A stretch of 64,000 nt of DNA from Escherichia coli (lineage in GTDB: Bacteria; Pseudomonadota; Gammaproteobacteria; Enterobacterales; Enterobacteriaceae), in NCBI RefSeq assembly GCF_024502345.1, contig NZ_JALDNN010000001.1; one strand, written 5' to 3'. Position numbers: made by a program. Of the stretch, positions 62,201-64,000 are shown piece by piece; the first letter of the stretch is position 1, and every line of letters begins with the position of its first letter.

Positions 62201-64000
62201 CGACTGGGCTGTGCGGGCCGTGCTGTTTTACTGGCGAATGGTTACTGGATGTTGGCTATGGAAATACCCTCGACCCGAGCCGCAAAAGTGTGAAAAAAAG
62301 CCAGTTGTGTCGGAATAAACGACAAAATGCAGATTATTTCAGCAAACGATTTCAAATTTAAAAAACAGGCTTTGACATTGTGGGTGGGCATCGCTAATAT
62401 TCGCCTCGTTCTCACGATTCCTCTGTAGTTCAGTCGGTAGAACGGCGGACTGTTAATCCGTATGTCACTGGTTCGAGTCCAGTCAGAGGAGCCAAATTTT
62501 AGTTTTGAGACATCTCTATGAGTCCCAAAACAGTTAAAAAATAAAAATTATTTTTACCCGGTTACCTTGTAAAAAAGTGACCGGTTTTTTTGATTTCTGT
62601 GTTTCGTGCGCTTAATCGAGTCTCACGCTTCAGTGAGCAAGTTGCCCCCCAACAGACATCACGATTCGCAAGGTCAAAAACTCTGTTCCATGAAGTACCG
62701 TACAAAGATAAAGAGAAAAATGCCTTATGCGGGATGTCGCTATCGCGTCTTTATCGGGAAACTATGCGTAATTGCCACTTTGCCTTCTGTAATCAGAAAA
62801 AGAAGAACTGGAATTTTAATAAATATTATTTCTCTGGGAACGGGGATTTTTTATAATCAATATGACGAGTTGAACATTATATTTTTTATAAGGGTTATAT
62901 GAGATTAAAGAAATCTGCCGTAAAGACAGATTTCTTTAAAATATAATTAGAGATTTGCGACGTTATGATAAACTTTTTGTACATCGTCGTCATCTTCAAG
63001 GGCATCAACAAGCCCTTCAAAGATTTCTAAATCTTCTGGGGAAAGCTCAACTTCAGATTGCGCAATCATTTCTAATTCTGTTGTTGAGAACTCAGTGATT
63101 CCAGCTGCTTTTAGAGCCGCGATTCCTTTATGAAGGTCAGTAGGTTCGGTATAAATAACAATGTTACCTTCTTCTTCAGTCACATCACGAACATCAACTT
63201 CAGCTTCAAGTAAAATTTCAAAAATATGGTCAGGGTCTGATCCTTTAAATACAATCACACCCGTATTGTCAAACATATAGCTGACAGAACCTGCCGCTCC
63301 GATATTGCCGCCTTTTTTATTGAAAATTGTGCGAACGTTAGCAATCGTACGGTTAACATTTGAAGTCAATGTCTCGGCGATAATCATTGAGCCATTAGGA
63401 CCAAAGCCTTCATAACGGCCCTGCACGAACGTTTCATCTCCGCCGCCTTTGGCTTTATCAATTGCTTTATCAATAACGTGCTTTGGAACTTGTGCCTGCT
63501 TTGCACGTTCAATAACGAATTTTAAAGATGTGTTTAATTCTGGATCGGGTTCACCTTGTTTAGCAGCAGCATAGATTTCTACACCGAATTTTGCATAAAT
63601 TTTAGACGTTGCACCGTCTTTAGCCGTTTTTTTAGCAACAATATTGGCCCATTTACGTCCCACTGGAATGATCTCCTCGAAAATTTATTTACATTACTGG
63701 TAAATCGTTAACATGTGTTAAATCAGCATATTATATCATAACAGGAAAAATCTCGTCTATTAGAAATAAAAATATTCTAAAGCCATAATCTTATATTTTG
63801 TTTTATAAAAACTAATGTTGTTGGCGGGATTTTTTATAATTATATTTTGAAAGCATACATGCTTTTAATATGCGGAAATCATTAAGACGATAATGAAACT
63901 CGCATCTGCCCAAGGAAGCAAACAGCCCGCGTTGATTGCAGGCTATTTGCCAGATGTCTTACTTAATCCTTCACATCTATTTCTGATGAGAAGGTTCAGA

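Follow-up and report, generated by a model that had tools for sequence, protein, structure and literature searches.

Results

The Spacer Between asnW and yeeN

The tRNA-Asn gene asnW and the oppositely oriented gene yeeN are separated by 452 bp (positions 62495–62946) in the 64,000-nt stretch of Escherichia coli DNA analyzed in this study (contig NZ_JALDNN010000001.1 of the RefSeq assembly GCF_024502345.1, hereafter referred to as the window); the features assigned to this spacer and its surroundings are collected in Table 1. An initial annotation of the window had described an AT-rich gap of about 450 bp with homopolymer runs between these two genes, and this description is confirmed. Indeed, the GC content of the spacer is 0.347 vs. 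0.472 for the whole window, reaching its lowest value (0.244) in 62816–62946, and homopolymer runs of 5–7 bases occur eleven times. The atypical composition extends over 62495–63913 (24–43% GC vs. 47% in the window), and the amn/yeeN neighborhood has been described as an H-NS-bound “promoter island” (PMC3661553).

The spacer is present, in one copy per genome and with approximately 93–99.8% identity, in 5411 of 5426 complete E. coli genomes, and no annotation falls inside it in the RefSeq genomes examined. No further copies were found in phages, and the apparent “plasmid” matches turned out to be mislabelled chromosome pieces. The diversity of the spacer is at the neutral level (pi of 0.02–0.06 vs. 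0.03–0.05 at third codon positions of yeeN and yeeO). Some strains carry IS1 at ~62760, in line with a dispensable spacer.

Table 1. Features of the asnW-yeeN region (positions in the window) and the evidence behind each assignment.
Feature	Position	Strand	Evidence or remark
tRNA-Asn (GTT), asnW	62419..62494	+	ARAGORN; Rfam tRNA, 72.6 bits; RefSeq annotation, K-12-type locus
tRNA-proximal (left) arm relic, genomic island with P4-type integrase	62495..62650	+	nhmmer, blastn, four-way alignment
Hairpin A, conserved stem-loop within the island arm	62502..62531	+	MFE fold; RNAalifold
Predicted intrinsic terminator after asnW	62558..62591	+	8-bp GC-rich stem followed by T7
ORF88, 88 aa, TTG start	62590..62856	+	read as a ghost frame, not a gene
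ORF98, 98 aa, GTG start	62606..62902	+	read as a ghost frame, not a gene
P4-type integrase gene, decayed 5' end	62651..62741	+	alignments to intact/annotated integrase genes
GyrI-like gene, 5'-end relic	62742..62815	-	nhmmer with the yeeN-downstream flank
yeeN cassette, AT-rich intergenic part, 24% GC	62816..62904	-	common to yeeN loci of other Enterobacteriaceae
Predicted yeeN terminator hairpin, 13-bp perfect inverted repeat	62905..62939	-	repeat search; fold
yeeN, YebC_II-type protein, 238 aa	62947..63663	-	ORF; RefSeq annotation
yeeN promoter and 5' region, upstream limit of the common cassette	63664..63775	-	blastn; alignment
Amn-adjacent hairpin, far edge of the inserted DNA	63917..63951	-	alignment of the amn 3' flank; fold

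Insertion at the amn/tRNA-Asn Junction

In Escherichia albertii and Enterobacter hormaechei, the orthologous region is arranged as shiA-amn-tRNA-Asn-yeeO; a hairpin lies in the 68 and 120 bp, respectively, that separate amn from tRNA-Asn, and neither yeeN nor the arm listed in Table 1 is present. Since in both outgroups amn is followed by tRNA-Asn and yeeN is absent, approximately 1.4 kb has been inserted at the 3' end of the tRNA gene. No complete E. coli genome has an empty amn/tRNA-Asn site. E. albertii and Enterobacter have a single bidirectional terminator between amn and tRNA-Asn; judging from position and ~70% identity over ~30 nt, the hairpin at the far edge of the inserted DNA (fold of -23.8 kcal/mol, z=-3.2) is probably orthologous to it.

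A Relic of a P4-Type Integrase Island

Homology of the spacer to genomic-island arms starts at 62495–62496, the first base past tRNA-Asn; asnW is the integration target, and the inserted DNA begins at the tRNA 3' end. A nhmmer search with the left end of the asnU island of strain A33 (tRNA excluded) matched 62496–62678 (E=4.6e-16), which is the sole such match in the 64-kb window. A profile of three islands also recovered the arm (E=3.4e-7), and blastn of the arm against those of Salmonella and A33 gave E-values of 1e-20 to 1e-22. The A33 match, along with the fact that E. albertii and Enterobacter lack the insert, supports the earlier suggestion that an island remnant might lie immediately 3' of this tRNA. 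In intact islands, the counterpart of the left-arm relic is the stretch from the tRNA to the integrase start codon.

Two structured elements are predicted within the arm; the fold of 62495–62600 reaches -23.8 kcal/mol (z=-3.7). Hairpin A comprises 11 pairs by RNAalifold across nine homologous arms, several of which are kept via two-sided changes. In E. coli strains, in Salmonella and in the A33 island, compensatory changes maintain the stem of the predicted asnW terminator. The outgroups and E. coli asnU possess another hairpin, immediately 3' of the tRNA; on this comparison, the predicted asnW terminator came from the island and took the place of the ancestral one. Both the asnW and the yeeN hairpins, as modeled, would act as terminators in vivo, and both were missed by a simple promoter/terminator scan because of its loop and GC rules.

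The arm is followed by what remains of the integrase gene. The relic retains codons ~4–12 (TDITIRKVK) and ~34–60; the ATG region (13 bp) and ~70 bp have been deleted, one frameshift is present, and with ~35 of ~420 codons surviving the catalytic domain is gone. Integrase codons 1–12 are taken in by the A33-arm match described above, and the support for codons ~34–60 is weaker: a second nhmmer match (62673–62741, E=0.058) is colinear with the first, and the segment past 62678 is only moderately significant when this match is considered alone. Additional evidence came from blastn of 62677–62720 against the integrase (E=7e-6), from tblastn fragments (E=0.003 and 0.042), and from a local alignment score of 71 vs. 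a shuffle mean of 27.5 (sd 4.7), a score reached by 0 of 300 shuffles. A stitched translation of the relic has no Pfam match, so the integrase is recognizable at the DNA level only, and the counterpart ORF of Salmonella matches Pfam Arm-DNA-bind_3 at 1.3e-14. In E. coli A33 and the pks island, intact integrases occupy the same position, ~165 bp past the other tRNA-Asn genes.

A search for attR (a direct repeat of the tRNA 3' end) at the distal boundary of the K-12-type locus found none with three or fewer mismatches. The best candidate, spotted by hand at 63900–63923, was rejected, being no better than 32% of random 40-nt windows by sliding local alignment.

The yeeN Cassette and Its Donor

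The yeeN-proximal part of the spacer has a different affiliation. When the yeeN-downstream flank alone was used in nhmmer, the Citrobacter locus L007 matched 62944–62742 (E=4.8e-10), and loci L002 and L008 gave E-values of 2.7e-10 and 1e-6, respectively. The L007 flank encodes NYLMIDGKGAPASSAFQNAIQFLY, matching the intact GyrI-like protein of Lactococcus taiwanensis, whose gene (Pfam 2.5e-11) directly follows yeeN; among 80 loci, L. taiwanensis is the only one with an intact GyrI-like gene in this position. The predicted yeeN terminator (minus-strand fold of -18.3 kcal/mol, z=-7.8, with A/T-rich flanks) is kept 3' of yeeN in all enterobacterial loci as well as in L. taiwanensis. YeeN shares 93% amino acid identity with its L. 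taiwanensis counterpart vs. 73–85% with those of other Streptococcaceae (the YebC_II tree was built by NJ from 25 sequences). On the opposite side of the gene, blastn homology to 14 enterobacterial loci stops at 63772–63776. Overall, these comparisons indicate a cassette of ~1 kb that would have come from an L. taiwanensis-like donor, with the GyrI-like gene co-transferred.

No credible plasmid-borne close relative of yeeN was found. A 15-nt direct repeat (family D2) flanks yeeN, with one copy at 62843–62857; it was considered but not adopted as a target duplication, as one copy is inside and the other outside the cassette, and K-12 has lost one copy.

One or Two Insertion Events

Very probably, the spacer is a non-functional mosaic scar of horizontal acquisition lying between two predicted terminators. 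In the proposed scenario, once E. coli and E. albertii had diverged, an island with a P4-type tyrosine integrase would have entered the E. coli lineage by integrating at the 3' end of tRNA-Asn. Its remnants would be the arm (62495–62650), which contains hairpin A and the predicted intrinsic terminator now used by asnW, and ~90 nt of the integrase 5' coding region (62651–62741). At ~62742, the integrase relic adjoins the 3' end of the opposite-strand yeeN cassette, where the stump of the GyrI-like gene and AT-rich DNA precede the predicted terminator of yeeN. The integrase island would have carried yeeN in as cargo, and the rest of the spacer appears to be without function.

A possible, although distinctly less probable, variant is that the integrase island and the yeeN cassette represent two separate insertions at the same hot spot, in which case the spacer would still be a scar. 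Nearly the same cassette ends (~62742–62778 and 63775) are observed in Citrobacter and in another Escherichia species, where the cassette occupies unrelated loci with no asn-tRNA nearby; this distribution of the cassette, along with the failure to find attR, speaks for two events. Nevertheless, the empty site of the outgroups lacks both relics, and the two lie end to end in E. coli, which favors one event without being decisive. Equally non-decisive is the cassette of the other Escherichia species, located beside icd: since icd is another known integration site, this location fits carriage on integrative elements.

Nothing ties the arrival of yeeN to the integration event that brought the integrase, and in other genera the yeeN cassette is found at unrelated loci.

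The Small RNA Question

Small RNAs derived from tRNA 3' external transcribed spacers are exemplified by 3'ETS-leuZ. The asnW trailer is likewise composed of a stem-loop, an A/U-rich stretch, and an intrinsic terminator; it differs in having no excess conservation, and it is known here from its sequence and predicted folds. The possibility that 62495–62591 is released from the asnW precursor as a stable RNA of this kind, or formerly exerted cis control over integrase expression, is in our view improbable, and we are slightly more reserved about an exapted RNA module proper, that is, a stable tRNA-Asn 3' trailer or an ex-attenuator of integrase expression. The arrangement of hairpin A, an A/U-rich linker, and a U-tailed terminator does resemble Hfq-type sRNAs, both hairpins are kept by compensatory or G·U-preserving changes among E. 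coli strains, the Salmonella relics and the intact island, and the arm has outlasted the decay of the integrase. On the other hand, the diversity of the arm (pi of 0.042) equals that of third positions in the flanking genes, and the need of asnW itself for a terminator would suffice to explain why the terminator has been retained.

A small RNA had also been raised by the initial annotation as worth checking, and it found no support here. In a covariance-model scan against Rfam, including permissive E-values, only the tRNA passes its gathering score, the next families remaining well below (manA-II, 33.4 vs. 100; STnc370, 27 vs. 54). The manA-II match (RF04315, 33.4 bits, E ~1e-3) was rejected, as the alignment leaves the stems of the junction unpaired and as this element, a riboswitch candidate with a three-stem junction and two hairpins upstream of manA/pflA in Leptotrichia, belongs to a different context and taxon. 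The matches of STnc370 and OrzO-P over the yeeN terminator are terminator look-alikes, well under threshold. No plus-strand promoter-like site was detected inside the spacer by the promoter scan, the sole one being the asnW promoter upstream of the tRNA. A transcript or sRNA from the spacer is unreported in the literature found on asnW and yeeN, including the papers that mention asnW. If such an RNA did exist, a domesticated piece of a mobile element would be part of tRNA-Asn expression in every E. coli.

The 88-aa and 98-aa Open Reading Frames

Two overlapping plus-strand ORFs of 88 and 98 aa, in separate frames and with no convincing ribosome-binding site, had been noted in the spacer and considered most likely non-coding. 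Both are found where they had been placed, no Shine-Dalgarno-like sequence was seen on inspection before the TTG of ORF88 or the GTG of ORF98, and the non-coding reading holds. The ORF88 frame carries integrase codons 3' of the frameshift, and the ORF98 frame carries GQKLCSMKYR, corresponding to integrase codons 34–43. By sequence, ORF88 and ORF98 are thus two ghost frames of the frameshifted integrase relic, extending into AT-rich DNA, and they appear open because the former integrase gene left stop-free frames.

That one or both ORFs encode genuine Escherichia-specific small proteins is very unlikely. The proposed alignment to other E. coli genomes revealed that a frameshift or a stop at codon 17, 51 or 78 disrupts ORF88 in 10 of the 12 other strains compared. 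ORF98 is near full length (89–99 codons) in eight of the same 12 strains, which is an argument for a protein, and shortened in the remaining four (28–29 codons in three, 84 in one). Frameshifting indels of 1, 2, and 4 bp and premature stops thus affect the ORFs in several lineages, and the IS1 insertion mentioned above splits both. Pfam searches with ORF88, ORF98 and two minus-strand ORFs returned sub-threshold noise alone (MGAT2, DUF5982). Some GenBank records do call both ORFs “hypothetical protein”; nevertheless, the clusters of these proteins have members of 30–98 aa that are confined to Escherichia and Shigella, and the NCBI pipeline annotation is absent from the complete RefSeq genomes examined. 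The non-ATG starts also count against a protein, and the stop-free frames of a dead integrase already account for both ORFs. In this respect there is no substantive difference from other spurious “hypothetical protein” calls over pseudogene relics, which are likewise variable in length, limited to one genus, produced by some pipelines only, and located on the old frames of a dead gene.

Finally, the notion that the spacer is plain ancestral intergenic DNA, AT-rich by chance and with nothing foreign in it, might appeal to its presence, unannotated, in nearly all E. coli genomes, but it is exceedingly improbable and is already contradicted by the sequence comparisons, since E. albertii and Enterobacter lack the spacer at the orthologous junction of amn and tRNA-Asn, and since its homology to island arms, and to the sequences that flank yeeN in other genera, is significant.

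Discussion

Genomic islands with P4-type integrases at asn-tRNA genes include the HPI at asnT, the pks (colibactin) island at asnW, asnU or asnV, and ICEEc1. The relic in the asnW-yeeN spacer shares with them the target (the tRNA-Asn 3' end) and the layout (the tRNA, an arm of ~160 bp, and an integrase on the tRNA strand), and its arm and integrase 5' end are homologous at the DNA level to those of E. coli A33, the pks island, and Salmonella. In contrast to these islands, only ~250 bp of it are left, the integrase start codon is lost, the flanking direct repeat is unrecognizable, and nothing but the 1-kb yeeN cassette could have been its cargo. Furthermore, the asn-tRNA islands are strain-specific, whereas the spacer relic is fixed species-wide. 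Comparable remnants occur in Salmonella enterica beside the two tRNA-Asn genes flanking yeeO, with an arm ~71% identical to that of E. coli and a truncated integrase 5' end; in one of them, an open 100-aa Arm-DNA-bind_3 ORF is followed by an arsenic-resistance island. Decay has gone much further in the E. coli relic than in Salmonella, and the E. coli relic is joined to yeeN.

The spacer can be viewed as an ordinary genomic fossil, of value for annotation and evolutionary history and adding nothing mechanistically new. For annotation, the two overlapping ORFs are explained, and the sporadic “hypothetical protein” calls would be better removed. For the history of the locus, the predicted asnW terminator of E. 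coli would be a loan from a mobile element, and the insertion can be dated as later than the E. albertii split and earlier than the diversification of E. coli.

The fossil also shows how yeeN may have entered E. coli, as a part of the neighbor gene of the donor is apparently still joined to yeeN, and the integrase relic adjoins it at an integration hot spot. Current work treats the YebC_II-type translation factor YeeN as the E. coli “paralog” of yebC. The comparisons presented here indicate that YeeN is rather a xenolog from an L. taiwanensis-like donor, which would affect the reading of functional differences between YebC and YeeN.

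The asnW-yeeN spacer and its two reading frames

The E. coli nac-cbl-asnU-yeeO-asnW-yeeN region lies at the end of the window, where the spacer between asnW and yeeN (62495-62946) spans 452 bp with a GC content of 34.7% (vs. 47.2% for the window) and contains eleven homopolymer runs of 5-7 bases. The initial annotation had described an AT-rich spacer of ~450 bp with overlapping 88-aa and 98-aa ORFs (ORF88 and ORF98) lacking a convincing ribosome-binding site, and regarded it as most likely non-coding; its coordinates proved exact, no Shine-Dalgarno motif is seen in the sequence upstream of either start, and the proposed alignment to other E. 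coli genomes bears out the non-coding reading. Across 13 diverse E. coli spacers, both ORFs contain indels of 1, 2, 3, and 4 bp; ORF88 is broken in 10 of the 12 other strains, by a frameshift or by a stop at codon 17, 51, or 78, and ORF98 is shortened to 28-29 codons in three of these strains and to 84 in one. A Pfam search of the ORFs returned only noise-level matches, and RefSeq has no annotation inside the spacer in the complete E. coli genomes examined. By exact look-up, both are occasionally deposited as "hypothetical protein" (30-98 aa, all from Escherichia/Shigella). ORF88 and ORF98 are not genes. Of 5426 complete E. coli genomes, 5411 carry the spacer itself as a single copy (identity ~93-99.8%).

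Features of the asnW-yeeN interval (positions in the window)
Feature	Position	Strand	Basis or remark
tRNA-Asn(GTT) asnW	62419-62494	+	ARAGORN
ORF88	62590-62856	+	88 aa, TTG start
ORF98	62606-62902	+	98 aa, GTG start
Putative stump of the donor's next (GyrI-like) gene	62742-62815	-	flank homology
AT-rich part of the yeeN cassette	62816-62904		
yeeN terminator hairpin (predicted)	62905-62939	-	13-bp perfect stem, -18.3 kcal/mol, z=-7.8
yeeN	62947-63663	-	238-aa ORF

Left half: probable relic of a P4-type-integrase island

Judged by homology, the left half of the spacer is the scar of an island with a P4-type integrase. In Salmonella loci retrieved via the neighbouring amn gene, each tRNA-Asn flanking yeeO is followed by ~150 bp alignable to E. 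coli 62495-62650 (the tRNA-proximal arm) and then by the 5' end of an integrase, and one of these integrase ORFs matches Pfam Arm-DNA-bind_3 (1.3e-14). A search with the Salmonella fragment as query revealed intact or near-intact integrases ~165 bp downstream of other E. coli tRNA-Asn genes, namely at asnU and asnV of strain A33 and in the pks island of MS20658. When the left end of the A33 asnU island (tRNA excluded) was compared by nhmmer with the whole 64-kb window, a single strong match was obtained at 62496-62678 (E=4.6e-16), covering the tRNA-to-integrase arm and integrase codons 1-12; 13 bp with the integrase ATG are deleted in E. coli, and reading resumes in frame (TDITIRKVK vs. TDTAIRKIK in the intact integrase). 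A second match, colinear with the first (62673-62741), corresponds to codons ~34-60, past a ~70-bp deletion and a frameshift. It is weaker by itself (E=0.058 by nhmmer and 7e-6 by blastn against a small database), with a local alignment score of 71 that no shuffle out of 300 equalled (shuffle mean 27.5, sd 4.7). Frame +1 carries the integrase fragment GQKLCSMKYR and frame +3 carries KDKEKNALCGMSLS; the two ORFs occupy exactly these two frames, which explains the overlapping open frames in AT-rich DNA. The stitched translation has no Pfam match, and the integrase relic is thus recognisable at the DNA level only. An island remnant, as the initial annotation had suggested, is supported by this arm homology beside the tRNA and by the absence of the block from E. 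albertii and Enterobacter hormaechei.

In one Salmonella enterica locus (L100), same-type integrase relics occur at both yeeO-flanking tRNA-Asn genes (2971-3513 and 5271-5700); one is still a 100-aa Arm-DNA-bind_3 ORF, although it has lost an internal segment in frame, and is followed by arsD-arsA-ACR3 genes. Identical tRNA-Asn copies also behave as inverted repeats: yeeO alone is inverted in strain AH62 (L092), and the entire asnW-asnU-asnV block in pks-positive MS20658 (L094), so that the pks integrase there follows the tRNA adjoining yeeO. The inversion in pks-positive strains has been described previously (PMC8209727). Strains O55:H7 USDA5905 (L085) and A21005 (L093) have a yeeO that contains an internal stop and carries a pseudogene annotation.

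Right half: tail of a yeeN cassette

E. coli shares DNA homology with the enterobacterial yeeN loci from 63772-63776 to an endpoint that varies by locus within 62742-62944. With the yeeN-downstream flank alone as nhmmer query, flanks match 62944-62742 on the minus strand (Citrobacter L007, 4.8e-10; L002, 2.7e-10; L008, 1e-6). The L007 flank still encodes NYLMIDGKGAPASSAFQNAIQFLYATAY, which matches a GyrI-like protein (Pfam 2.5e-11) at its N-terminus. The gene order in L. taiwanensis is yeeN, an intact GyrI-like gene, ung, and rpsU; a GyrI-like gene after yeeN is found in 0 of the other 79 loci. Flank homology and this gene order together point to a stump of the donor's downstream gene in the spacer. 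All enterobacterial loci and L. taiwanensis keep the yeeN terminator hairpin, and both terminator and stump would have travelled with yeeN. Comparative evidence indicates a Lactococcus origin for the yeeN cassette, whose tail makes up the right half. The cassette adjoins the integrase relic at ~62742, so that the whole spacer is accounted for; near this junction, at ~62756-62764, some clinical strains carry IS1 (A21005, L093 ~668-1435; also AR_0150).

YeeN shares 93% protein identity with L. taiwanensis, 84-85% with the L. garvieae group, and 73-79% with other Streptococcaceae, close copies are confined to a few enterobacterial genera, and an NJ tree nests the enterobacterial clade inside Lactococcus, with L. 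taiwanensis as its sister. E. coli YeeN, a YebC_II-type translation factor, therefore looks like a xenolog from Lactococcus (loci behind this reading: window 62947-63663, L013, and L002-L016). A comparison of cassette locations (L002 2257-6812, L007, L003) showed nearly identical cassette ends in other genera at unrelated sites: the cassette adjoins an IS3-type transposase fragment in Citrobacter sp. R56 and metNIQ-like genes in Superficieibacter. In an Escherichia species submitted as E. coli (89% DNA identity), icd and pdeG flank the cassette; the e14 prophage occupies this region in E. coli K-12.

On either side of yeeN stands the sequence GGGATTTTTTATAAT, a direct repeat of 15 nt without mismatch (62843-62857 and 63826-63840, 983 bp apart), with one copy inside the cassette common to other genera and the other outside; the left copy is lost in K-12. 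Between the shared cassette and a hairpin beside amn lie ~140 bp of 28% GC (63776-63916) with no homolog in any fetched locus; the amn/yeeN region, including this segment, is listed as an H-NS-bound "promoter island" (PMC3661553).

Probable insertion at the tRNA and terminator exchange

The order shiA-amn-tRNA-Asn-yeeO is shared by E. albertii and Enterobacter hormaechei, with 68 bp and 120 bp, respectively, between amn and tRNA-Asn; yeeN, arm, and integrase relic are absent from this junction in both. Each outgroup has just one hairpin, AAAAAGCCCGC...GCGGGCTTTTT, directly abutting the tRNA 3' end; the E. coli asnU trailer is this same trailer at 96-98% identity, and beside amn E. coli has a diverged version of such a hairpin (63917-63951, -23.8 kcal/mol), ~1.4 kb from asnW. 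We infer that the DNA from 62495 to ~63916 entered, in one event or two, between the tRNA and its former terminator, and that asnW may now use the island's own hairpin and T7 (62558-62591). Compensatory changes preserve the pairing of this terminator and of the trailer stem-loop (62502-62531) when E. coli strains, Salmonella relics, and the A33 island are compared. No complete E. coli genome has an empty site, so the insert is fixed in the species. An attR repeat was not found at the far end, a hand-spotted candidate being not significant. In E. albertii (L097 4245-4265), 21 nt of the tRNA-Asn 3' end recur exactly upstream of shiA, adjoining an RHS element, probably as the old att site of another island.

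Variation and RNA elements

By segment, the arm has a nucleotide diversity of 0.042, the integrase relic 0.022, the GyrI relic 0.058, and the AT-rich tail 0.043, and diversity at third codon positions is 0.031 for yeeN and 0.047 for yeeO; spacer variation is at the neutral level. The small RNA raised in the initial annotation found no support either in this diversity or in the covariance-model scan, the tRNA being the sole above-threshold Rfam match. A manA-II riboswitch candidate (62461-62591; 33.4 bits, E ~1e-3, vs. a gathering score of 100), a family known as a Leptotrichia riboswitch candidate, was judged spurious, with the defining junction unformed and the score owed to AT-rich hairpins and to the terminator. 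In the trailer hairpin, A-to-G polymorphisms at 62528-62530 occur in four combinations among strains, all opposite U, so that pairing is kept as G.U on the plus strand only; in this small sample, they hint at RNA-level rather than DNA-level constraint. We conclude that the working elements in the spacer are probably the two predicted terminators only, and that the remainder is decaying foreign DNA, probably H-NS-coated.

Discussion

Overall, the finding is real, the cautious first reading was right, and the explanation is ordinary: compared with tRNA-linked P4-type-integrase islands, the spacer relic is a small, degraded member of a well-known class, for which the E. coli asn-tRNA genes are classic sites (HPI, pks, ICEEc1; PMC8209727, PMC7232551). 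The literature searched contained no published account of the relic or of a Lactococcus origin of yeeN, and recent YebC/YeeN papers treat YeeN simply as a YebC_II paralog. The apparent origin of yeeN is a modest by-product of the spacer analysis.
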